A stretch of 14,538 bases of DNA from Octopus sinensis (taxonomy: Eukaryota), in the NCBI RefSeq assembly GCF_006345805.1, contig NW_021825789.1, forward strand, positions 1-14,538. Direction: 5' to 3'. Each line of letters begins with the position of its first letter. Within the stretch, counting starts at the first letter, position 1. Shown in pieces: positions 1 through 14,538 of this stretch. The translations under genes and the position numbers were made by a program. The notes beneath the pieces are model-generated. The model saw only the letters and a program-made list of their open reading frames with translations. It was not told where the DNA came from and ran no database searches.

Positions 1-50
1 CAAAACAATAGCATAGGATTCAGTAACTCCATACGGATTAGCAACTTTAA

Positions 51-594
51 GGTTGATTACTGTAAATCCTCGAGTATAATCCACATTTTTCCCCCAAAAT
101 GCCCGAGTCTCTATTTGCTGTCCGGCAATGTTTATTCAGACGCATTTTGTGATGTCGGGCGCGAAAATACCTTAAGCTGAGCCTGAAAGCAATGAAGTCA
201 TAAAAGAATCACCCATAACTTGCAGTAAGCAACATTTATTAAAATAAAAGTATTCAGAACACAGAATAACATGTGACAAAAACAATTTGCAAACATATTT
301 ACATTCCCATATAACAGTTAAGAACATCACTATTATTGTATTACACATGCGAGGAAGTGTTTGTTCGACTAGGTGCTACTGGCTTAATTACGTACGCCTC
401 AAGTTAGAAAAAGGGTGCGTATTATACACAAGGTTTGGGTTTTTCAGAAGTACAACCCCCTAAAAATCCCCTGCGTATTATACTCAAGGGCGGACTATCC
501 TCGAGGATCTACGGTATACTGCAGCGACTTTTCATCAGACTTGCATCAAAGTTTGATACAAATCTGATGAAAAGCTGCTGCAATGTAACCAGCC
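51..594. repeat. 87-bp palindromic (hairpin) mini-element interrupted by the MITE at 60-514
   Basis: 520-550 pairs with 552-582 (27/31, 1-nt centre G551). Removing the MITE and one TA joins 51-59 to 517-550, giving a 43-bp arm that matches the reverse complement of 552-594 at 35/43; all mismatches are transitions. Confidence 0.7.
60..514. mobile_element. Non-autonomous Tc1/mariner-superfamily (pogo/Tigger-like) MITE, 455 bp
   Basis: Imperfect 25-bp TIRs: CTGTAAATCCTCGAGTATAATCCAC (60-84) vs reverse complement of 490-514 CCGTAGATCCTCGAGGATAGTCCGC (20/25). TA on both sides (58-59, 515-516). Subterminal direct repeats TGCGTATTATAC(A/T)CAAGG at 416-433 and 472-489. No transposase ORF. Confidence 0.8.
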
Positions 595-713
595 GCTAAT
601 ATTACATAACTTCGCATGAAACCATTTATGTTTTTAACGAAGTGGTGCTGAAACAAATGAAACTAGAATTAAGATGTGCTAAACCGATTCATCGTCTTCT
701 TTTTTTGGAATAC

Positions 714-716
<3 letters not shown>

Positions 717-748
<32 letters not shown>

Positions 749-960
749 GCAGCAAAAGCGCCAAGGTACTCACACACATACCCACACTCACGCACACATA
801 AATGCACCCATACACACATCTACATATCCACACACACATATACTCATCTCCTCCATGGACTGTGCAGATATATACACGCACGCGTGCGTACTCCACCCAC
901 ATAAATACTCGCATCACCAAACAAGTACACACATATTTGCACTCCCACACACGTACGTGT
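717..960. repeat. (CA)n microsatellite (717-746) and degenerate CA-rich low-complexity tract
   Basis: Directly visible. Confidence 0.9.
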
Positions 961-997
961 ATCGTTTCTAATATATAACTATTTCGTGGTGGCCGAA

Positions 998-1610
998 GGC
1001 GGCGAGCTGGCAGAAACGTTAGCACGCCGGGCGAAATGCTTAGAGGTATTTTGTCTGCCCTTACGTTCTGAGTTCAAATTCCGCCGAGGTCGACTTTGCT
1101 TTTCATCCTCTCAGGGTCGATAAATTAAGTACAGTTACGTACTGGGGTCGATGTAATCGACTTAATCCCTTTGTATGTCTTTGTTTGTCCCCTCTATGTT
1201 TAGCCCCATGTGGGCAATAAAGATATGAGAAACGTTAGCATACCGGGCGAAACGCTTAGCGGTATTTCGTCTGCCGCTATGTTCTGAGTTCAAATTCCGC
1301 CGAGGTCGACTTTGCCTTTCATCCTTTCGGGGTCGATTAAATAAGTATCAGTCACAGACTGGGGTCGATATAATCGACTTAATCCGTTTGTCTGTCCTTG
1401 TTTGTACTCTCTGTGTTTAGCCCCTTGTGGGTAGTAAAGAAATAAGGTATTTAGTCTACCGTTACGTTCTGAGTTCAAATTCCGCCGAGGTCGACTTTGC
1501 CTTTCATCCTTTCGGAGTCAATAAATTAAGTACCAGTTGCGTACTGGGATCGATCTAATCGACTGGCTTCCTCCCCCCAAATTTCGGGCCTTGAGCCAAG
1601 AGTAGAAAAG
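998..1610 (+). mobile_element. Head-to-tail trimer of a tRNA-derived SINE (units ~998-1227, 1228-1445, 1446-1610)
   Basis: Three copies of ...GTTCTGAGTTCAAATTCCGCCGAGGTCGACTTTGC(C/T)TTTCATCC... A-box-like TGGCAGAAACGTTAG and B-box-like GAGTTCAAATTCC. Units 2 and 3 are progressively 5'-truncated. Flanked by AACTATTTCGTGGTGGCCGAA (977-997) and AACTATTTCCTGGCCGAA (1611-1628). Confidence 0.9.
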
Positions 1611-1990
1611 AACTATTTCCTGGCCGAAAGTGCAATACAAACCAGGTTGCTGCCAATTATAAATAGTGTAATATGAAGAGAATAAAGTTAGTCGTACTGC
1701 ATAACAGCACATTACTTAACTGCATAACTAAATGTACACATATGCACATATAAAAAATGCACACACACACAAAGAGAAATACGAACATAAATATATATTA
1801 TACATATAAATACATGTCACATACATAAACTTACATATACACATTCAAAATTACCAAGAAGACAGTTTAACGGCTGTTGATGAATCAACCAACCACACAT
1901 TAATTCAGCGGTGGTAGGAGACAAACAACACAGATGCGCGTATTGATATGAACAGACTTTAAAGCACAGAATGAGTTGAATTTTACTAAA

Positions 1991-2301
1991 AATAAAGGAA
2001 TTCGCGAACGCAGAATAGCTGTGAAAACAGCTCAGATGATCGAATAAATATCTTTAGGAGACGGGAAAAAGTGGACAGCAAGCCGCTACATAGAAATCGA
2101 ACCTTGTACTTCAAAAGACGGTGCCTGTTGTCAGGGGTCGCATAGCTAAATAGTACTGAATGCTCAGCCGAAACTCGAGAGATACAGGGTTCGATTCTCG
2201 GTAGCAACTTGCTGACCATTTTTTTTGTCGTCTTTTAAGGGTATTTACCCGATCATCTAAGCTGTTTACACAGTCATTCTGCGTTAGAGATTTCCTTTAT
2301 T
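1991..2301. mobile_element. Fold-back / MITE-like element with ~119-bp inverted arms containing tRNA-like sequence
   Basis: 1991-2109 aligns with the reverse complement of 2183-2301 at roughly 75-80% by eye (AATAAAGGAA...AACGCAGAAT..CTGTG.AAACAGCT.AGATGATCG...AATCGAACC.TGTA). Confidence 0.8.
2136..2209 (+). pseudogene. Degenerate tRNA-like cassette (Pol III A/B boxes) inside the fold-back element
   Basis: A-box-like TAGCTAAATAGT (2143-2154), B-box GGTTCGATTC (2188-2197), partial T-stem CAGGG/CTCGG, imperfect acceptor stem, GAA at the anticodon position, and a T8 run at 2219-2226. Stems are too mismatched for a functional tRNA. Confidence 0.6.
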
Positions 2302-2306
2302 CTATA

Positions 2307-2378
2307 AAGGTGCGGCACAGTGGAACTAAACCAAGACCACATAGGAAACAAGCTTGTTATCGATTCAGCCACGCCTGC
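2307..2378 (-). mobile_element. 5' head fragment of a second tRNA-derived SINE family
   Basis: Minus strand reads GCAGGCGTGGCTGAATCGATAACAAGCTTG...GTGGTCTTGGTTTAGTTCCACTGTGCCGCACCTT, with degenerate A and B boxes. Resembles a common octopus SINE head as I recall it. Confidence 0.55.
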
Positions 2379-2455
2379 AGACTGGAGAAATATTTTTTCT
2401 CCAAAACTTTTGAATACTACGGGTAGGTGTCTGGCATTTGTGTCAATATATGTGA

Positions 2456-2659
2456 GGTGGCAGAAACGTTAGCACGCCGGGCGAAATGCTTAGCAGTATT
2501 TCGTCTGCCTTTACGTTCTGAGTTCAAATTCCGCCGAGGTCGACTTTGCCTTTCATCCTTTCGGGGTCGATAAATTAAGTACCAGTTGCATACTGCAGTT
2601 GATCTAATCAACTGGTCCTCTCCCACAAAATTTTGGGCCTTGTGCCTAGAGAAGAAATG
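2456..2659 (+). mobile_element. Monomeric tRNA-derived SINE, same family as 998-1610 (tail type of unit 3)
   Basis: Near-identical to the head and body of 1008-1150 and to the tail of 1520-1610. Perfect 11-bp TSD AATATATGTGA at 2445-2455 and 2660-2670. Confidence 0.92.
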
Positions 2660-2974
2660 AATATATGTGAATCTTTTTGTTTAGTTTTCTGTATAGCATA
2701 TATTTGCGTATAATTAAGTTAAATGAAACATCTGTAGAATTAACTGTACTCAAGTTTGTAGATATTGTTATTTTAAGTTAGCAAAATACTTTTTTGATCT
2801 CACAACGTGAGATATTCAGCAACAGTACTTTGTAATAAAGCTTGTTTGCCAACATAACATGGCAGTCCTAGTTTAGGACTAATATTGCTGTAATTTAGCC
2901 CCAGGAGACATCGTCTCCAGCTGGCTATACGACACGATCTGTGTCCTTATATTTTCGAACAAGGGAATCTACAA

Positions 2975-3144
2975 GCATACATACCTGAACACATATTTGT
3001 ATACATACATGCACACATATTTACATAATACATACATACATACACAGATACATACATACATACATGCATACAAACATACATACATACATACATACATACA
3101 TACATACATACATACATACATACATACATACATACATACATGCA

Positions 3145-3177
<33 letters not shown>

Positions 3178-3216
3178 GCATACATACATACATATATACA
3201 TACACATATACATACA

Positions 3217-3249
<33 letters not shown>

Positions 3250-3365
3250 GCATACATATATACATACACATATACATATATACACATATCTAAATACATA
3301 CATACACACATATGTGTACATACATACATGCATATATACAGGCATGCATCATGCACACATACATA
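2975..3365. repeat. (CATA)n microsatellite with degenerate flanks
   Basis: Directly visible. Confidence 0.95.
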
Positions 3366-3990
3366 CTTGTGTATGTATATGAATAAATATTTATAAGAAT
3401 AAAATGCATATATATAATCTTTAATATATACATATATAAGTGTGTGTGTGCGTGTCTCCCTGCAGTGTGTATATATTAAGCTGCTGATGTTGAAACTACA
3501 GCATATATTTGTGCATAAAGTTCGATGGCATAGCATACTTTCAATGCTTGCTATTCAGATGATTTCGAAGCTGTTGAGCGAAAAAGAGCTTTTACACATC
3601 AGTTCTATTATTAAGAAGGAATATCATATTTATTTGAAAGTAAATGATAAATACAATTGTTGCTCCCTCTGTTGCTCTAGTTCTGACTTCCTTCATTCGC
3701 ATGACAATAAAATAAATTATATCACTAAATGTCAGACTTGTTGAGTCAAAGTTTGTTTTAAATACCATACAACAATTGATGATATGAAAAGTACGAGGAA
3801 TATTACTGAGGTTGTCTCTTCAATGAAGATATATATCAGCAGTCAGTTGACCTTAAAGAAAATAGAAAGGAGAATGAATTTTCGTATAAATATATCCCAA
3901 CAATGTAATATGCATGGATTACATCTTTCGGGCCCTTTGTCGCTTGAACAATATGTATGGCTAACATACAAACAGGACTGTAAATGTCAC

Positions 3991-4031
3991 GTATGTATGT
4001 ATGTATGTATGTATGTATGTATGTATGTATG

Positions 4032-4062
<31 letters not shown>

Positions 4063-4108
4063 TGTATGTATTAATGTATGTATGTATGTATGTATGCATG
4101 TATGTATG
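3991..4108. repeat. (TATG)n microsatellite abutting the 3' end of LINE copy 1
   Basis: Directly visible. Confidence 0.95.
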
Positions 4109-4109
4109 T

Positions 4110-6344
4110 CTCTTCTGCTTTTTAATTATTATAAATCTTCCACTGAGGAGGCAGCCGGTTTCCAACAAAGATACAAGGCTCCATCTTTGGGATGTAATTA
4201 ACACAGAGAAATTCACATTTGGAACTTGCGAAAAGTCTTGCATACTTTTACTGTTCCACTCACAGATTGAACTTGTAATGTACGAATTAGCCGGTCGATT
4301 TCTCTTTCTGAAAATCTCAGTGTATCCAGATTTTTCTTTAAGCATTTACTAACAAAACCTAGCACTCCAATTATTATTAATATGAATGTGAATTAATAGT
4401 CTGAATATAGAAGCTGGCGATTTCGAAGAAGTTGTCTATAGATATCCTCTTTGTCTTTGATTTTCAAAGATATATTTATATTTGCAGAGCAGCTGAGCTC
4501 TATGACGGTACATACTTTTGCCCGTCTGTCTCAAATAACAATATCCGGCCTGTTATGCTTATATTTGACAGAAGTTTTGATGGAAATATTCCCCCAATAT
4601 TCCTTGAGTTGGTTTTTATGAATGTATTCCATAACAGAGGGAATTTCCAAGTTTATTTCAGGGCAGTCTCTTTTGCGGATGGCGTTGTAAATTGTTTTAG
4701 CAACAACATCGTGCCGCATAGGGAGGTAGTACCGAGACGATATTTTAGGACAGCTGCTAATCACATGCGTAATGTTTTCCACAGAAACATGACATGGCCT
4801 ACACATGCGGTTGCACCTTGGGATTACAAGAGCATCATTGTCTCTCTTGTTCATCAGGTACTTTGTGGCAATCTCCTGTTCCTGGATTGCAAACGCACAG
4901 CCTTCAAAGTGTGATGTGATGTAGTGGCCTTGTGTCCAAGAGAGGCTGCGCTTTGTGTCAATTCTACTGTCTTCTTCAAGCTTCCGGGCAGCATATCCAT
5001 GCATGGTCTTTTTTTTGTATGCTGAGTGCTTTCCATCCAGGTTTCTCTGAGTTAAGAGAGTCTAGCTATGTTGGGGCTGTGTAGAAGATTATCAGCAAGA
5101 GAGTGTTTCTTGAGGAGTTCACTGCCAACTCGTACAATGTTGCTCACTTGACTTTCAGGACTACATTAATATATTTATGTTTGCTGTTACTGTTTAGCAG
5201 GTGCTGCCTGAGTGATACGATACGGCATTCGAAGGCCGTCTGCACTGATTTCATGGCCTCTACCACCTTCATTTCTTCTTAAGCAGAGCCTGTCAACATC
5301 ACTGTTTTGTGGAAGTTCCCAGATGTCAGGATTTTGCGGGTTTTGATATATATATATATGAAGTGGATTTCCTTTTCGGACCAATCAAGTATCCCAAATG
5401 TTGGGATCAGCACTGGTACTGCAAATGCATAGTGGGATATCGTTTTGTTGTAAGAGGAGAGTTCCGACTGCCATATTTTCCTAAGTCTGGTGTAATATTC
5501 TCGGGTCACTCTATCTTTATTCACAGAGTCTTCATATGGTACATGTTCGTCTATGCCTAGGTGCTTGTAACATTCTTTGTGTGGAATAGGGGAGATAGAG
5601 AGACCGTTGATGCACAGGTTTTGGGTTTGGGGAACTGATTTTCCTCGTTCTGTAACCAAATATGAACATTTCTTTTGACGAAATTCCATGCCTATGTCAG
5701 CCGAAAATGTCACTAATTCCAGTTTATTTTATTTGCATTGTTAACACGTTTAGCATAAATCTTCAGGTCATCTACAAAGAAATTATGGGTTACATTGATA
5801 TTTCTGGCAGTTGAAAATCCTAACTTATAACCATTTGTTTTCTGTAGTTGGAACGATAATGGATTCAGTGCCAAAATGAAAAGAAGTACAAAAGGACTAT
5901 CTCCCTGGAATATTCCCTTTGTAATGCCTATACTATTAGAAACAATTATTCTGTTCTCAGTTGTAAGGTTAAGAATAGTTGTCCATGTCTTAGTGAGTCT
6001 CTCTAAAGCAGCAATTAAGGTAGTAGGTACCTTTGCCAGATGTAGGCACTTCAACAGTCATGAATGAGGGATAGAGTCGGATGCCTTCTTATAGTCAAGC
6101 CATACTGTCACAAGGTTTCTGCGTTGTTTTCTTACTTCAGACAGTACAGCTTTGTTTATTAAAAGTTGTCCGGCACATCCCCACACTCTCTTCTCTCCAC
6201 CAGCCTGTTCACCAGTCACAATGTTTTTCGACTCACAATGGTCATGGATGAATTGGTTGAGGCAACTTGTGTACAGTTTAGGCAAGCAATGGGCCTGTAG
6301 TTTCCTCGGTGATTTCATTTTTGGCAACAAGATTTGTCCTTGCT
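4110..6344 (-). mobile_element. 5'-truncated, decayed R4/Dong-like non-LTR retrotransposon (RT + CCHC zinc knuckle + restriction-like endonuclease), copy/family 1
   Basis: Collinear frameshifted minus-strand pieces: NYRPIACL (~6290), WLDYKKASDSIPHS (ORF 6058-6330), GIFQGDS...LNPLS...HNFFVDDLKIYA (5713-6054), DIGMEF...KKC...YKHLGI (5279-5713), DRLCLRRNEGGRG (5187-5384), CRPC..VENITHVISSC, RHD and HNRPDIV (4531-5004). The last frame continues through stops as DRRAKVCTVIELSC...IIIGVLG...VSGTVKVCKTFRKFQM* (stop 4213-4215), followed by a ~100-nt 3' UTR. Confidence 0.92.
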
Positions 6345-6425
6345 GTATGTATGTATGTATGTATGTATGTATGTATGTATGTATGTATGTATGTATGTAT
6401 GTATGTATGTATGTATGTATGTATG
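6345..6425. repeat. Perfect (GTAT)~20 array separating the two LINEs
   Basis: Directly visible, no interruptions. Confidence 0.95.
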
Positions 6426-7757
6426 TTCTCTTTCCCTTTTTAATTTAGGGTAAATTTCGTCCGGCCACCGACTTGGTAGCGAGGTTGTGAAAGGAAGTAC
6501 CTTGTTTTAAATATCATCCTTAACTCTTAAGGTCTTGCAGATTTTTATAGTCCCAGATACTGTGTTCATTTGTAGTGAATGAATTAAGTATTTGTGTTCT
6601 CTCTCCAAGATTTCAAGTTAAACCATACTTTTCTCCCGACGGGTTGGTATGTATCTTGCCGCTCCGTTAATAATAGGTATGAAGCTGAAAGTGTACCTTA
6701 GGTACTGGATTTGCAAACTCCTTATCAATGGTCTATAGATGTCCCCTTTCTATTGTAATTTTCTAACCACATTCAGAGGGCAGCTGATTTCCACAACAGA
6801 ACATATCTTTTCCTTGAGGCCCCACACAACAATATCTATCTAACCTGTTGCGTTTTAACCTGATGGTAGTTTTAATTTTTAAGTTCCACCAATATTCATT
6901 TAACCCATTGATCTCAATATTGTCAACTTCTTCTGTAGGTGTTTCCTTTTCTGTTCCATAGCGTTCTGGCCACCTCATGGGAAGATTATATCTAGAAGAT
7001 ATTCTCTCACAATAGACGATAATGAGGTTGATGTCTTCAGTCTCGGTTTTGCAAAGTCTAAATTTGTTGTCTGTTAATGTTTTCTGCCTTTTATGCTGTA
7101 GATACTTGAATGGCATCACTTGTTCTTGGATTGCATGGATGTAGCCTTCAATATGAGATGTCCACACCAAGCTTGTCGGTACTCCACACCAAGCATTTGA
7201 CATGATCAATCTCTTTTATGATCCGTGTTTTTCGTGCCAAGTACCCATATACTATCTTCTCAATGAACTGGTCTGTTTTATTTTGTTCTGATGATAAATA
7301 GATTTTACCAATGTTCTCTGGGGAGAGATCTCTATCAGCTCTTATTTCATGTCTCTTCTCAAGTTCATTAGCTATCTTAATTATGTAGCTGATTTTATGG
7401 TCACAAACTAGGGCAAGATAGTTTTACTGGTCTCTTTTCTCTGCTGTAAGATGTTTCCCTATCACACACAACACGTAATCCATATGACATTAAGACAGAT
7501 TTGAGACCACGACCACCTAACCGTGCGTGGGAAGTATAGCCTGTCTACGTATTTATCGATATTGAAATTTCCTGTAACGCTCAGCAGCTTGTGAATTCGA
7601 AGGACTATCTTACTGAGTTCTTGAAGTAAGCAATTCAGAAGGCCAAACGCAGGTGTGAGGATAAACAGTGCAAAGTTGTTGTGGACAACAAGCGTTCTGT
7701 AAACTGAGAGTTCTGATGACCATATTCCTTTACTTGCGGAGGTATTCATTCTGATTG
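6426..7757 (-). mobile_element. 5'-truncated, more decayed R4/Dong-like non-LTR retrotransposon, copy/family 2
   Basis: Minus-strand peptides homologous to copy 1: KGIWSSELS...FALFILTPAFGLLN...VDRLYFPR (7462-7755), SHIEGYIHAIQEQ...RLCKTETEDINLII..CERISSRYNLPMR...YWWNLKIKT (6763-7209), and C-terminal VSGTIKICKT (~6530-6560). The 3' UTR differs from copy 1 except for the terminal motif. Confidence 0.88.
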
Positions 7758-7758
7758 T

Positions 7759-8132
7759 GTATGTATGTATGTATGTTATGTATGTTATGTATGATGTAGT
7801 ATGTATGTATGTATGTATGTATGTATGTATGTATGTATGCATGTATGTATGTATGTATTTATGTATGTAGTATGTATGCATGTATGTATGTGTATGTATG
7901 TATGTATGATGTATGTATGTATGTATGTATGTATGTATGTATGTATGTATGTATGTATGTAGGCTGCATGCCGTATGTATGTATGTATGTATTTATGTAT
8001 GTATGTATGTATGTATGTATGTATGTATGTATGTATATCATGCATGTATTATTATGTATGTATATATTTATGTATGTATGTATATATGTATGTGCGTGTG
8101 TGTATGCATGCATGCATGCATGTATGTATGTA
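7759..8132. repeat. Degenerate (TATG)n microsatellite abutting the 5' end of LINE copy 2
   Basis: Directly visible. Confidence 0.95.
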
Positions 8133-8440
8133 CATTCGTTCAAACCTACCAACCTACCTACGACGAAGGGTTTAAAAAGCGTAAAAATATTTTCTTTCTC
8201 AACTTACTCAAGATCTTTTGTTGTTTATAAATGGGAGAGAGATAGATAGAGAAAGATAGAGAGTAAGAGAAAGCGAGCGAAAGTCTACTATCTTCCCTCG
8301 CCGCCTTCGACAGCGCTGTCACACACTCTCTCTATGTCTGTCTGCATTCATAGAGAGAATTATCATCGTCACAACCACCACACAATCATGAGAACAAATA
8401 TTATGAATCAGATATTTTTGGGTTAATTTATGTGTGTGTT

Positions 8441-8496
8441 CTATATATAAAATATGTATATATGATGTATATATACAAAGTGTAAATATCTGTACT

Positions 8497-8535
<39 letters not shown>

Positions 8536-8642
8536 GTATACATTTATATATATAATGCGTACACATACGCACACACACACATACGTACACACACCACACA
8601 CAACATACACACCCACACACACACACACAACACACACACACA

Positions 8643-8685
<43 letters not shown>

Positions 8686-8690
8686 ATGTG
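8441..8690. repeat. (TA)n and (CA)n compound microsatellite
   Basis: Directly visible. Confidence 0.9.
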
Positions 8691-8916
8691 TGCATATGTG
8701 GTCGGTTGAGCTGAAAATATGCACACCTACGTTAAAGTGGTGGCGAGTTTGCATGGCAAAATATTTTTTCCCTCAAATGAAAGGCGTGACCTCTAGGACA
8801 AAATTCCTCATCTTATAAAATGTGCCGAGTAGACCCGAATGAAATCGGGTTAATAACCAAAATGTGAAAATGGGTCTAAATGGGGCTGGAAAGGGATTAT
8901 TAAATTTACAGGAGCG

Positions 8917-9172
8917 GGTGTTTAGGAATTCTCTGTTACATCAAGCTAAAAAATTTGCGCCAGCCTTTTAATCGTCAATGTGTTGCCGTCCATGATGAAG
9001 AAGTTTTGAATGCTTGCCATGGTGAGTCTACTGTCGTGAGAAAGAATCACTTCAAAGCTTGGTGTTTAGGAATTTTCTTTTACATCAAGTTCAAAATTTT
9101 ACGCCAGCCGTTAAACTGCCACTACGTTGCTGTCCGTCGTTAAGAAATGCCAGCCATGGTGACTCTACTATC
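8917..9172 (+). repeat. Diverged tandem duplication, period 144 bp (8917-9035 / 9061-9172)
   Basis: GGTGTTTAGGAATT....TTACATCAAG...CGCCAGCC...GTTGC.GTCC...GCCATGGTGA.TCTACT shared by both units. Confidence 0.8.
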
Positions 9173-9490
9173 CTCACATTCTATCCCTTCAAACTTTGGT
9201 TTCCAATATTTCATTATTTTTATTCAGCTCGCAAGTTCGTCTGTCCCTTTTAAATGTTAGTGTTTTGCTGTCTGCCTTGAAGCAGACCTTTTCGTTGTCA
9301 CTGCCTGATATTTATGAGTGATCTTTGAAAATATTTACTTTCTCAACTTACTCAAGATCTTTTGTTGTTTATAAATGGGAGAGAGATAGATAAAGATAGA
9401 GAGTAAGAGAAAGCGAGGGAGAGTCCGAGAGAAAGGAAGAGTAAGACAGTGGGAAAGTTAGAGAGAAAGGAGAGAGAAACAGAGAGGGAG

Positions 9491-9491
<1 letters not shown>

Positions 9492-9560
<69 letters not shown>

Positions 9561-9858
9561 GTTCAACGTCCGTTTTCCGTGCTAGCACGGGTTGGACAGT
9601 TTGACCGGGGTCTGGGAAGCCAGGAGGCTGCACCAGGCTCCAGTCTGATCTGGCAGTGTTTTTACAGTTGGATGCCCTTCCCAACGCCAACCACTCCGTG
9701 AGTGTAGTGGGTGCTTTTTTCGTGCCACCGGCACAGGTGCCCGGGGGGGGGGCTGGCAGCGGCCACGATCGGTTGGTGCTTTTTACGTGCCACCGGCACA
9801 GAAGCCAGTCTGGGCAGCGCTGCCATCGGTCACGTTCGGATGGTGCTTTTTACGTGCC
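9492..9858 (-). mobile_element. 5'-truncated SINE/LINE-tail repeat with a (GAT)23 3' tail and three ~66-bp internal subrepeats
   Basis: (ATC)23 at 9492-9560. Minus strand GGCGTTGGGAAGGGCATCCAACTGTAAAAACACTGCCAGA...CCAACCCGTGCTAGCACGGAAAACGGACGTTGAAC(GAT)n. GGTGCTTTTT(A/T)CGTGCC recurs at 9710, 9775 and 9842. Simple-repeat tails of this kind are typical of RTE-dependent SINEs (family assignment from memory). Confidence 0.75.
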
Positions 9859-9902
9859 GAAAGGAAGCAACAGAAAGTAACAACCACACTCTTACCCGCG
9901 CG

Positions 9903-9907
<5 letters not shown>

Positions 9908-9936
<29 letters not shown>

Positions 9937-9994
9937 TGTATGTATGTATGTATGTATGTATGTATGTATGTATGATATGTATGCATGTATGTAT
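9908..9994. repeat. (TATG)n microsatellite
   Basis: Directly visible. Confidence 0.95.
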
Positions 9995-10043
9995 GTAGGT
10001 AGGTAGGTTGGTAGGTTTGAACGAATATACATACATACATACG

Positions 10044-10440
10044 TGTGGTGAGGCTTAGATTCGAAGCCGTGTATATTTAGTAGCTAGGATTAGGCCACAC
10101 ATTATTTACACACATACCGTTCAGAGTTGGTTTAAACATGGGACAGCAGGCAGCGTAAACTTCATACCAACTAATCAAGACCAATTCTATTCAGTCTGAC
10201 GATGTTGAGCCGACGTTCAAACGTACGTTCGACATTGGTATTACCCGACGTTTAAACAAGCTATCAACATACTAACTTTCGTTGATAAAGAAAGGCCAGA
10301 GAATGAATATATTATGATTTGGCGACCGCCGACATCTAACTTTACAACTTTTACATTGCCGACCCCCCGCCCAAATTCTACAATGTAAACCTCGATGCGA
10401 GGAATGGCAGTCAAATCAAGCCACATTCGCAATCAACGTC
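10044..10440 (+). mobile_element. Ty3/Gypsy relic: internally deleted 5' LTR (family A), degenerate PBS, gag N-terminal fragment
   Basis: Starts TGT. 10044-10100 matches 12748-12804 (43/57) and 10115-10207 matches 13178-13270 (~82%, ungapped). TGGCGACCGCCGAC (10320-10333) resembles the tRNA-Trp PBS TGGTGACCCCGAC. 10367-10437 translates with a frameshift as PPKFYNVNLDA....QI.ATFAIN, like the LPxFW..P..WF.Q.EA.F gag start. Confidence 0.6.
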
Positions 10441-11058
10441 TTTCCAGCCAGCGAATCGATGACCAGCCTGACACTTGACATGGCAGCCAAAAGCAACCAG
10501 CGAGATAACTCGACACCTGGCATTCAACTACAATAAACCTGTAGTGACCCCTGGCGGTCAAGCAGGAAAGCAAAACGAAAAAGTGATCGGATCTTTTCTA
10601 AAAGATGGACAGAATTTCTACTTAACTAAATAATTTGAAACTTCGTATACTGCTGGAATGTGTCAAAAGAAAACATTAATTTCAACTAGTTTTTTTGAGA
10701 AAATTGTATTTTGTAACTTTTATGTAATTTAATTCTTCGAATTTTAACCAATGAAATCCCAGCATTTGAGCTAAATTCATTTGCTGCGTCTAAGTAAACA
10801 GCAGACACATACACACGCACACGTGTTATTCATCCATCACTTCTGTCTTCTGCCTTCTGCAGGTGCTAGAAATAACAGCTATATCTCTTAAATCGATGAA
10901 TTTCGTCGTCCAATAAAAATATTAACGATATTTTGTGGACTTTTAAAACATGTTCGTATTCGTTCCACTTTCGCAGGACATCAATTTTTTTTTGCGGTTT
11001 CCACGCATTGTCTTGTTATTTCCTATAAAGTCATGCCTAACGCACCACTTACATACTT

Positions 11059-11236
11059 CACACGCACACACATACAAAACAAAAACACACACACACGCAC
11101 ACACGCACACATACACAACAAAAACACACACACACACACATACACAACAAAAAAAAACACACACACATACTCAACACACACACACACAACAAACACACAC
11201 ACGCACACACATACACAACAAAAACACACACACACA
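11059..11236. repeat. Compound minisatellite of (CA)n-TACACAACAAAAA units
   Basis: About 5 imperfect units visible. Confidence 0.85.
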
Positions 11237-11320
11237 GGTAATCGTTCCGTAAGTCAGGGATGACATTGAAATAAACATGGGTACCTGTGTGTGTTTTTGT
11301 TGTGTATGTGTGTGCGTGTG

Positions 11321-11711
11321 ATCTAACGAGAGTACTCTCCTTCAACCTTTTCGAAAATTCTCGAACATTCTAGAAGCTTCCAATTGACTTCCGGATGACG
11401 TGGAAGTCAGGGACTTCCGGTTTATCTCTTATATAAAGGAACACATTCTAATTTCGCGCCACTCTTGCCTGTCGGATCCTAGACATGCAATGAGTCACGC
11501 CACTGGCATATACAGCTGCACGCGCGGATGTTCGCCATATTTGTTTTGAGACATGTGGTTGCAAAATATATTCATGTGATGTAACAATCTTTTCCCTTCA
11601 GTTAACCTTATATGTTAACGCATTACATCCAGTAATAAATATATTATGGCTTATTACAAACGTCTCACAAATTCTTATTTTCTTGTCGTTTACGTACAAG
11701 ATGGTGACCCC
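11321..11711 (+). mobile_element. LTR (family B) with adjacent tRNA-Trp primer-binding site; 5' boundary uncertain (~11240-11321)
   Basis: TATATAAA 11430-11437, AATAAA 11634-11639, terminal ...CGTACA ending at 11698, then TGGTGACCCC at 11702-11711 (first 10 nt of the tRNA-Trp PBS TGGTGACCCCGACGTGAT). Confidence 0.7.
11352..11381. promoter_or_regulatory. Perfect six-unit heat-shock element (HSF-binding nGAAn array)
   Basis: cGAAaaTTCtcGAAcaTTCtaGAAgcTTCc: alternating GAA/TTC at exact 5-bp spacing, ~50 bp upstream of the TATA box. Confidence 0.75.
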
Positions 11712-12264
11712 TCTTTCTCGCATGCAATTATAAAAATTATAGGATGTCACTTACTGACGTTCACTATAAACTGCTGAATTCAACAGCGTAAGAGCCACTC
11801 AACAAACTTCCAAGCGATAAACCACGATGAACATACAAATTATTGCAGTTTACTATTCGATATGCTTCTTTACAAAGCACACTATTCAAATGATTAAGAC
11901 TTTCACGCCGTCAACGCCGACACCACTACGACAATGGGTTAACTTCGATATCGGCATTAACAAAACAACTCGTCTCCAGCCGACAACAACGAGACGACTG
12001 ATCTGTTAAGCTAACACGGACCAAACGGTCAAATTACGCGCTCAATTGCGACCGAGGACACAAACGAATTGCAACCAAATGGTTTTGCATACTTGAGTTC
12101 GCAGAAGGGACACCGAAAAACTCTCTTTTCGCATGTATATAAATTTATATTTCATTTCGTTCTAGTTTAAAAATTTTTTTTGTTCTCTCTCTTTTTACTC
12201 CATTTATATCTTTGCAAGTCAGCCATGTCCAAAGTTAATGTTTTTTAGTTTGTTTTTGCAGGAT

Positions 12265-12460
12265 CCACTCGCAGATAAATTCACATGTCACATTCAAACC
12301 CAACAAATGCACATGCAGATAATTTCAGACAGAAGGAATACAACCATGCTTTTCTGCGCCTTGTTTCCAACCATCTATTTTTATCTATACAACCTCTCCC
12401 TGGTTATGTTGATATCAAAATAGGCCTAAATGGCTTAGCACATCCAGCGTCTCGCACTTT
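12265..12460 (+). pseudogene. Ty3/Gypsy pol relic (end of RNase H to start of the integrase zinc-binding domain), heavily deleted
   Basis: LADKFTCHIQ / TNAHADNFR resembles the F...I.H..G..N..AD.LSR motif, and LNGLAHPASRT resembles LH.L.HPG.RAT. Short motifs only. Confidence 0.5.
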
Positions 12461-12699
12461 CCTTCAATATGCACACAGTACTGTTCTTGAAATTTCCATT
12501 TCAGGGACATTTCAGGAACTATTTTCTCTTTCGTATTTTTTATATTTCAGTAATTTAACATTACGAACTTTCAAATTCGTTGTATTTGCTATCACCTTGT
12601 TATACGCATTTTGCATTTTTTAGTTACATTCTTCTAGTGTTTTGCATGCTAATTCCTTGTTTTGTATTGCCTGTGAGTTTTTGCTACAGTTTTTGTTTT

Positions 12700-13270
12700 G
12701 GCTCTCGTTCGCTTTCCTTCTCGAACGCACTAGGGGATGGAGTGTAATGTTGCAAGGCCTAGATTCGAAACCGTGTTGGTTTTGTAACGAGGATTAGACC
12801 ATATCAGACCAGGTGACTACACTACTACCCTTGTAACAATATCACCCCTCTTATCGAATGTTTAAATGTTCTCTCGTAAATTGGGATTGTAAAAGCGAAA
12901 GCGTGGTCAAACACACCAGAGAGGCATATAGATTACACAGACAACAAGTCCCTTCGAAAACTGTTTCTTGGTTGCAACACTCGACCCTGGGTTATAGGAT
13001 TTAGCGACTATAATAAACGGAATATTTTCCCGCCTCTCACTCGAAGCCATTCTTATCGCTTATTAATTTGTCTATGCGCTCCAGTTATACTGGCAGACCG
13101 CAATATAACCCTGGTAAGCATCCGTATTATTATGTAAATATTGTGATGCGCACATGTATAAATAACTGCGTGTTAAATACTGTTCGGAGTTGGTTGTGAT
13201 ATGGGACAGCACGCAGCCTTAACTTCACACCAACTAATCAAGCCCCATTCTATTCAATCCAACAATGGTG
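12700..13270 (+). mobile_element. Ty3/Gypsy 3' end: integrase C-terminus, polypurine tract and 3' LTR (family A); LTR 3' boundary uncertain
   Basis: LVRFPSRTH* (~12704-12733) resembles the R.VR.P.R terminal motif. Purine tract AGGGGATGGAG (12732-12742) lies just before TGT at 12748. Homologous to 10044-10207. TATAAATA near 13157. Confidence 0.65.
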
Positions 13271-13329
13271 GCCCACGAAGATCATACAACCACACGCGTG
13301 CTGCGTAAATATTTACCCCACCTATGAAA

Positions 13330-13715
13330 TTAAAGCGTTGTACTCAAAGACGGTCATCCAATGAACCAGACACACAGAAGTCAAAGAGTACCAAATTCGG
13401 GTTGGATAGTGGATGAAGAACCACTAACAAGCATAATTTGCTGATTACCTGATTTTTTTTTTTGTCAAAGATTTGTTGGGTCGCGTAGTGTCTCAATGCA
13501 CCGCTCGTCATTCACGGCACAGCCACTATCCAGAAAATCAATAAGAATGACGCCCATGACATCTTAAAGAAACATTGTCTATGACTTTCTGTGCCTAATG
13601 TTATATCTTGAACTTATTGGGCTTGGGATGAAAAATAAGTCACCATTCATGGACTGGACCTTCGTTTCCACATCATAAAAATACGTTCATGTTTGATATC
13701 CTATCACCAGATCTA
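13330..13715 (-). pseudogene. Mariner (DD34D) transposase relic, catalytic-domain fragment with internal deletion
   Basis: Minus strand with stops and frameshifts: LVIGYQT*TYFYDVETKVQS (cf. IVTGDETW.YYDPETK.QS), PKPNKFK...QKVI, GVILIDFLDSGCAVNDERCIETL, HPLSNPNLVLFDFCVSGSLDDRL*VQRF (cf. HPPYSPDLAPSDF.LFG.LK..L.G.RF). The HDNA segment is missing. Confidence 0.85.
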
Positions 13716-13764
13716 AAAATAAAATGTGTCTTCATTGATTTTGAAAAGCTTCCAGCAAGTCAGA

Positions 13765-13765
<1 letters not shown>

Positions 13766-13816
<51 letters not shown>
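13766..13816. repeat. (TG)n microsatellite
   Basis: Directly visible. Confidence 0.95.
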
Positions 13817-13817
<1 letters not shown>

Positions 13818-14538
13818 GGGTGTGCGAAGGCGCGTTTGGTTAAGATTTCGATGTTATATTGTGTTCTTCAACTTTTGTCAACTCAGCTATAAACGTGTAA
13901 CCCTTTTGGGTGGGTAACTGTTGTGTAGAGAGCAGTAACTTCATCCACTTTACCGCTACCACGATTGTTTATTTGAAGCAGCCATTTAAAATTGATTTTC
14001 CAATAGCGCTACCTTCGGTAGTTGGAAACTAATTGGAATGGAAAATTCGACGCACAGATGAGTTTTGACTTGTAACCCGCTTTAAAATTCTGCCTTCCAA
14101 CATAGAAGTTACACCACGAACATGGCCTGTTGCTTCCTTGTACTAATAAAGCAATAATTCTTACACATAAGTTCTTCAATCAGACAACTCCAAGATTATT
14201 TATCTCTATGGACAACACTTGCATTCTGTTCTGGGGGAATGTTGGCCTGCGCCGCCTACTCTGTTGTGTGGCATCATTCGAAGGCTGCAACAATGCGTGA
14301 AAGAGCTTTGTGACCGTGTAACAATATCCGATAGTCTAGTCAATACAGCGATACAATGATACACACACGCACACATATGACTCCGAATAAGTCATTACAT
14401 ATATTTTGCAGTTCCGTTTCATCAAACTATTGGTGTTTCCTCTGCATGGGTTCTATTTTGGGAGTAGTGGTCTAACTCTCTCCAGGCAGAACGACAACAT
14501 TGGTACACACATCTGATGATAATCTATATATATAAAAC

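Follow-up and report, generated by a model that had tools for sequence, protein, structure and literature searches.

CATA-repeat junctions of an R4/Dong-like retrotransposon lineage in the genome of Octopus sinensis

Why do two distantly related retrotransposons end in the same simple repeat, side by side and in the same direction? The question is raised by a 14.5 kb contig of the 2.72 Gb Octopus sinensis genome (NW_021825789.1, positions 1 to 14,538; hereafter the window, which comprises the entire contig), where two remnants of long interspersed nuclear elements (LINEs), A and B, lie between tracts of the tetranucleotide repeat (CATA)n. The original prediction took them for members of a cephalopod R4/Dong lineage that uses this repeat as its target. 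We regard it as probable that A and B are broken LINE copies from a branch of the R4/Dong group whose insertions enter CATA repeats in one fixed orientation, likely by means of a predicted Myb-like domain and an endonuclease that nicks the TATG strand. The branch likely switched its landing site from TAA repeats to CATA or CTTA repeats. Such behavior is already known in kind, and both copies in the window are dead.

Two diverged elements among three (CATA)n tracts

Tandem arrays in the window were called with Tandem Repeats Finder (TRF). On the plus strand, the three tracts next to A and B contain 25 (3991-4109), 20 (6344-6426) and 67 (7758-8132) TATG units and no CATA unit, so that each tract is (CATA)n on the strand of the elements, and the repeat directly adjoins all four junctions of A and B (Table 1). 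Both elements carry stop codons and frameshifts. Aligned to the intact relative P0128 (1164 amino acids), A covers residues 479-1164 and B residues 747-1159, indicating that both are 5'-truncated. Comparison of A with B by tblastx yielded seven collinear blocks at 41-60% identity, except for one at 33%, while nucleotide similarity is nearly nil (best blastn E value 0.002). Protein homology with almost no nucleotide similarity excludes a local duplication and bears out the view that the two belong to diverged families, to which our searches added a third, family C. The further claim, that the window displays two independent 5' truncation points within the repeat, stands for B's junction and needs qualifying for A's: the tract 5' of A is also the 3' flank of B, and this double role of 6344-6426 leaves the window by itself with a single 5' junction, B's, that is not explicable as another element's tail.

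Table 1. Features of elements A and B in the window, with the loci of the control families D1 and D2
Feature	Position or loci	Strand	Remarks
(CATA)n tract, 3' flank of A	3991-4109	minus	ACAT immediately past A's end; called with TRF
Element A, family A retrotransposon without long terminal repeats, of the restriction-like endonuclease (RLE) type	4110-6343	minus	5'-truncated, decayed
A: stop codon and 3' untranslated region (UTR)	4110-4215	minus	
A: RLE core, NRPD ... IELSC	4489-4554	minus	Stop codon between both motifs
A: zinc-knuckle (CCHC-type) motif	4750-4803	minus	
A: reverse transcriptase (RT) motifs NYRPI, LDYKKA, QGDS, FVDD	5761-6302	minus	One frameshift and one stop
(CATA)n tract, 3' flank of B and 5' flank of A	6344-6426	minus	Near-perfect, 20.8 units
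Element B, second family	6427-7757	minus	5'-truncated, more decayed than A; post-RT region and 3' UTR
B: RLE	6777-6852	minus	Eroded
B: zinc knuckle	7009-7065	minus	Eroded
(CATA)n tract at B's 5' truncation point	7758-8132	minus	Long, imperfect; 95 units by TRF
D1 loci	L182-L192, L206, L207, L220		
D2 loci	L193-L201 and others		

The R4/Dong-like anatomy proposed for these elements was supported. RT, a zinc knuckle and a PD-(D/E)-K endonuclease, with no apurinic/apyrimidinic endonuclease (APE), are the marks of an RLE-type element, and these motifs are present in A and eroded in B. Pfam gave only a weak RVT_1 match on the window fragments (E 0.006), and RVT_1 scored E 7.5e-22 in a copy of A's family, L077. 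In 18 intact relatives, which have a single open reading frame (ORF), Pfam detected RVT_1 in all 18 and zf-RVT in 17 (mostly weakly) and listed no APE family; the RLE lies at the C-terminus, and the N-terminal APE of Waldo-type elements is absent. The N-terminus is missing from both window copies, and its features were read from intact relatives, which share a three-helix, Trp-rich N-terminal domain alignable with the Bombyx protein P0098. In an AlphaFold model of P0128 (mean predicted local distance difference test score, pLDDT, 79), residues 25-78 form a three-helix domain, and the best Foldseek matches of the model are R2 protein structures (E 8e-34), R2 also being nearest by sequence. The Atlas clusters nearest to the first 90 residues of P0128 are of Myb type (Myb_Rap1, 0.84), which we treat as a lead only; Pfam gave no Myb match in the intact relatives. 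As modeled, the domain agrees with the SANT/Myb-like N-terminal domain, without zinc fingers, reported for R4/Dong (PMC7998251).

CATA tracts at junctions across the genome

First-look searches returned 4227 candidates for family A, 2031 for B and 6365 for C, of which the best 40 per family were scored, and a search with an RT peptide had the best 150 of its 11784 candidates scored. Subsets of loci were fetched and junctions were called by chaining alignments to natural reference copies, a procedure that replaced all-versus-all junction calling, which other repeats had confounded. Both window loci, three B loci refetched at greater length and one duplicate C locus were excluded before counting; five copies reaching a locus or reference edge were left out of the 5' counts, and the 5' junction of L062 was placed manually. 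The scoring rule for a tract was 11 of 12 positions matching the repeat between -40 and +15 of the junction. For the background, 4000 windows came from 20 10-kb stretches at round coordinates; 2.25% of these windows had sense and 1.98% had antisense CATA.

Sense and antisense CATA tracts numbered 36 and 3 at 66 5' junctions of A, 17 and 0 at 36 of B, and 24 and 2 at 37 of C, or 77 against 5 at all 139. For A and B combined, 53 of 102 5' junctions had a sense tract (binomial p 6e-59 against the background) and only three had an antisense tract (p 8e-13 for orientation). These figures agree with the junction enrichment and fixed orientation originally predicted. Additional long B copies gave seven sense and no antisense tracts (n = 19, 20 minus one paralog), and 5'-complete A copies gave 24 and none (n = 27, of 30 loci found by A's 5' end). 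At 90 3' junctions of A and B, we counted 60 sense and five antisense tracts. CATA was found in 73 of 139 copies within the first 50 nt upstream and decayed to 4-9 of about 135 past 300 nt. Lengths run from 621 to 3455 nt among the 26 A copies that are CATA-flanked and have both ends, so that many independent truncations finish in the repeat. The phase check gave a clear answer for A, in which ACA follows the terminus in 25 of 28 copies with an intact terminal motif. Perfect repeat runs are short (median 9 nt for 3' ends, 6 nt for 5' ends), and a few repeat units thus seem sufficient.

Control elements from the same genome behaved differently. A search with a protein of the octopod Argonauta hians led to young families with long open frames, and the 40 loci fetched comprised 34 D1 or D2 copies, four copies of A or C and two left over. 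D1 and D2, which are 92-100% identical to their reference copy, have ORFs of up to 1348 amino acids and are likely among the recently active Dong-R4 class, carry TAA at 29 of 34 5' and 33 of 34 3' junctions and CATA at one of 34 5' and none of 34 3' junctions. No TAA tract occurs in 139 5' and 128 3' junction windows of A, B and C, which therefore do not share the (TAA)n target that strictly defines Dong. Two short interspersed nuclear element (SINE)-like repeats had CATA in the left flank of 0 of 129 and 4 of 63 matches. Per 200 kb of background there are 47 TAA arrays, 48 CATA arrays and no CTTA array. As a separate observation, the D1 and D2 copies in (TAA)n are frequently nested next to other truncated copies.

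Could these tracts arise with no targeting at all, the elements making CATA tails and the 5' tracts reflecting chance, passive build-up or later expansion? CATA arrays are common here, many 5' junctions have no tract, and passive accumulation near CA repeats has been described for Waldo-A/B of Drosophila (PMC3812793). A tail, however, cannot produce sense-only tracts at unrelated 5' truncations, and neither the SINE-like repeats nor the TAA-Dong controls have such an enrichment. Because of the orientation bias, this explanation is largely refuted, and we consider it highly improbable.

Several results nevertheless weigh against targeted insertion into CATA. The copies analyzed are the best-scoring tens among thousands and no random draw. 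By the rule used, 62 of the 139 5' junctions (about 45%) are without a CATA tract, and another dispersed repeat accounts for just 16 of these 62. CATA lies at both ends of only 30 of 87 A and B copies, with at least one end positive in 70 of 87, and the 3' phase of B is blurred, ACA being found in 6 of 25 copies. Target-site duplications did not exceed the shuffled null (two observed, 2.5 expected). Finally, no empty allele of the window site was found; its left flank is single-copy and its right flank is another repeat.

Within its 3' UTR, family C carries an expandable CATA tract, beyond which lies a unit of some 110 nt similar to the 3' UTR of A (for example in L096, L161 and L202), the two having a short motif in common by eye. 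This distal unit is present in 26 of 38 copies and missing in 12. The count of CATA tracts at C 3' ends, 36 of 38, was discarded because the tract lies inside the 3' UTR and was partly included in the query. All three families look dead in this genome, with no intact copy among those fetched.

If insertion into CATA is indeed targeted, its steps may resemble those of R2 (R2Bm and R2Tg), which has the closest solved structures by sequence and fold and is the source of the priming mechanism proposed here; R2 differs in its N-terminal zinc fingers and 28S rDNA target, and R2-like copies from this genome are a distant outgroup. By analogy with R2 biochemistry, the predicted Myb-like N-terminal domain and the endonuclease would bind the CATA repeat, and the endonuclease would introduce a nick of fixed phase into the TATG strand. 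The cut end of that strand would then prime reverse transcription, and cDNA that stopped early would be joined back into the repeat at the 5' side. As for the window, divergence suggests that B inserted first: element B is 75-82% identical to the best 39 other copies of its family, element A 88-90%, and with B's thus the older family, A probably inserted later into the tract at B's 3' side. The repeat may also serve such elements as a safe harbor, as originally proposed.

Relatives, trees and the choice of target

Among 120 protein matches listed, the sole named close relative is the Argonauta hians protein P0025, at 50% identity. A metagenome scan confirmed 427 loci, of which 80 were kept and 40 had their ends viewed. 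The seven closest full or near-full loci are 38-49% identical to P0128. One of them, L224, is intact, with (CATA)n in the same orientation at each end; another intact locus, L223, has (CTTA)n at both ends; and intact relatives with (CTTA)n at one end are L222 and L226 (5') and L228 (3'), while no repeat is visible at the viewed ends of L225 and L227. More distant loci (27-33%) that reach an end mostly have (TAA)n there, with one (TAAA)n and two (TC)n. The latter three ends belong to the Dong-like elements L246, L249 and L230, hinting at further target switches within the group.

We placed these elements in a rooted RT tree of 36 rows (LG+G4), the outgroup being five R2-like copies from the same genome, flagged for odd composition; rooting on two distant antisense RT fragments had been dropped after the root fell on a gappy row. 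The rows exclude named Dong, nematode R4, NeSL, HERO and CRE sequences. Families A, B and C form one clade with the CATA and CTTA metagenome elements (100/99), so that the three CATA-enriched families have retained their target through diversification, as had been proposed. The stem leading to this clade has a length of about 0.44 changes per column. The clade sits in a basal polytomy with TAA lineages and a Bombyx protein, and together with the TAA-flanked Dong-like rows it groups apart from the R2-like rows (100/100). In RT trees without the R2-like outgroup, a branch with 100/100 support likewise has every CATA and CTTA row on the same side. The clade member P0128 is 34-43% identical in RT to TAA-flanked elements and 22-26% to R2-like ones. 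The lineage likely falls inside R4. Within the clade, A is sister to C, B falls together with the Argonauta protein, and the rows with CATA and those with CTTA interleave, with no separate subclades resolved. Given the octopus-type families that do not group together, the CATA-bounded L224 and the CTTA relatives, a lineage restricted to cephalopods is probably wrong; the sequences suggest that it is probably wider, with C(A/T)TA as its target. We give roughly even chances to the fuller statement that this is a widely spread, undescribed R4/Dong sub-clade which moved from TAA to C(A/T)TA, has intact CATA and CTTA members one base apart and coexists with TAA Dong elements.

What sets the site could also be the RNA. 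A read-through CAUA tail would pair with the TATG strand while a relaxed endonuclease nicks widely, and only paired nicks would prime well; the tail would pass on the target, and a one-base switch could occur while the protein stays unchanged. The fixed 3' phase and the short 3' runs are compatible with such pairing, as is the interleaving of CATA and CTTA rows within the clade, and the 12 C copies without the distal unit look as if primed at the inner CATA tract, although that unit could also be lost by later insertions or deletions. On the other hand, D1/D2 and A/B/C hold separate targets though TAA and CATA arrays are equally common, and the protein tree tracks target class with one change. 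Site choice by the tail therefore strikes us as unlikely, and it may operate together with recognition by the protein. Less likely again is a looser recognition of C(A/T)TA as a single tetranucleotide specificity, the flank mirroring the host's common array. The octopus genome, with CATA arrays and no CTTA arrays in the 200 kb sampled, and the lack of separate CATA and CTTA subclades would fit it; L223 and L224, however, each show one repeat at both ends, and CTTA was found at none of 139 5' and none of 90 3' junctions, which the rarity of CTTA here could account for. Recognition of the CATA repeat by the protein remains our preferred reading.

Known systems and further observations

Microsatellite targeting by LINEs is already known from Dong, which targets TAA, and from the unrelated Waldo elements, which target ACAY (PMC3812793), and the way in which LINEs choose such targets is called poorly understood in the same source. 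In most insects, molluscs and cnidarians, TAA is the target of Dong (PMC7998251). Like Dong of Bombyx mori, DongAg and DongBg, the lineage described here combines a single ORF, RT and a C-terminal RLE with microsatellite insertion (PMC7998251; PMC3812793). Unlike Dong, its target is (CATA)n, or (CTTA)n in relatives, instead of (TAA)n, it forms a separate RT clade, and its ORFs are shorter, at about 1130-1200 amino acids compared with 1200-1350 in D1/D2. It works like Dong and falls outside Dong as strictly defined by target. WaldoAg1, WaldoAg2 and WaldoFs1 target the same repeat class, ACAY, since (ACAT)n is (CATA)n (PMC3812793), and the CATA repeat is thus not new as a LINE target. Waldo elements are APE-type insect elements of the R1 clade (PMC3812793), whereas the octopus lineage has an RLE and no APE, which makes the common target convergent.

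Dong-R4 elements are abundant in coleoids (PMC8967140), and those of Octopus vulgaris comprise 51 families and 92.7 Mb, with five families recently active (PMC13282606). The consensus sequences catalogued for octopus Dong-R4 may include families like A, B and C. The available portions of PMC8967140 and of PMC13282606 with its supplement contained no target site and no split into TAA and CATA lineages, and the portion of PMC5753468 held nothing relevant on the target. Our literature search found no CATA- or CTTA-targeting R4/Dong family; Repbase, Dfam, Fell et al. 2025, Kojima and Fujiwara 2003/2004 and Biedler 2015 lay outside its scope and could list the target.

A clade with intact CATA and CTTA members beside TAA relatives lets swaps of domains and RNA tails reveal what sets the target. 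If our reading is true, it provides a natural series for mapping the retargeting of a Myb-plus-RLE retrotransposon, the octopus Dong-R4 class would divide into at least two target guilds, and one of these would have converged with unrelated Waldo elements on one repeat. Work on retrotransposon-based gene insertion names the search for R2-like elements of new specificity as an aim (PMC13586686).

The 5' ends of these elements yielded some additional observations. A ribozyme resembling that of hepatitis delta virus is reported at the 5' end of Dong and R4 (PMC3774820); Rfam gave no ribozyme match on one 5'-complete A copy or on D1/D2; only a small 5' hairpin was predicted. The motif GGAYGT recurs near the 5' end of CATA, CTTA and TAA elements (L062, L322-L351, L222-L224, D1 and D2) and might serve as a downstream promoter element or else belong to an RNA structure. 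A transcription initiator supplied by the repeat 27 nt before GGAYGT was considered and is not supported: by hand count it fits L222, L223 and L224, but the predicted +1 base in 22 5'-complete A copies is T in 12, A in five and C in five.

With regard to R2-like elements, a motif of the R2 site in 28S has 31 exact matches on many chromosomes (loci L352-L393). About 24 of the 30 matches viewed follow diverse R2-like 3' ends and not 28S sequence, which suggests that several R2 lineages were carried to dispersed sites with their 28S 3' flank. Long ORFs that carry three zinc fingers are present at two of these loci, L385 and L393.

Elsewhere in the window, two further CATA/TATG arrays (3001-3366 and 9902-10005) lie without an adjoining A, B or C element, the former in the opposite orientation. 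A SINE-like repeat, abundant at other loci, forms a cluster of four copies at 1004-1612 and 2454-2661. A further dispersed repeat, which often occurs in clusters (1876 candidates), has a copy at positions 8160-9904 that is broken by (ATC)23 and by a SINE-like element at about 9560-9858. This copy is bordered by a 42-bp inverted repeat (8120-8161 and 9999-10040, 98%) that extends into the TATG/CATA tracts.

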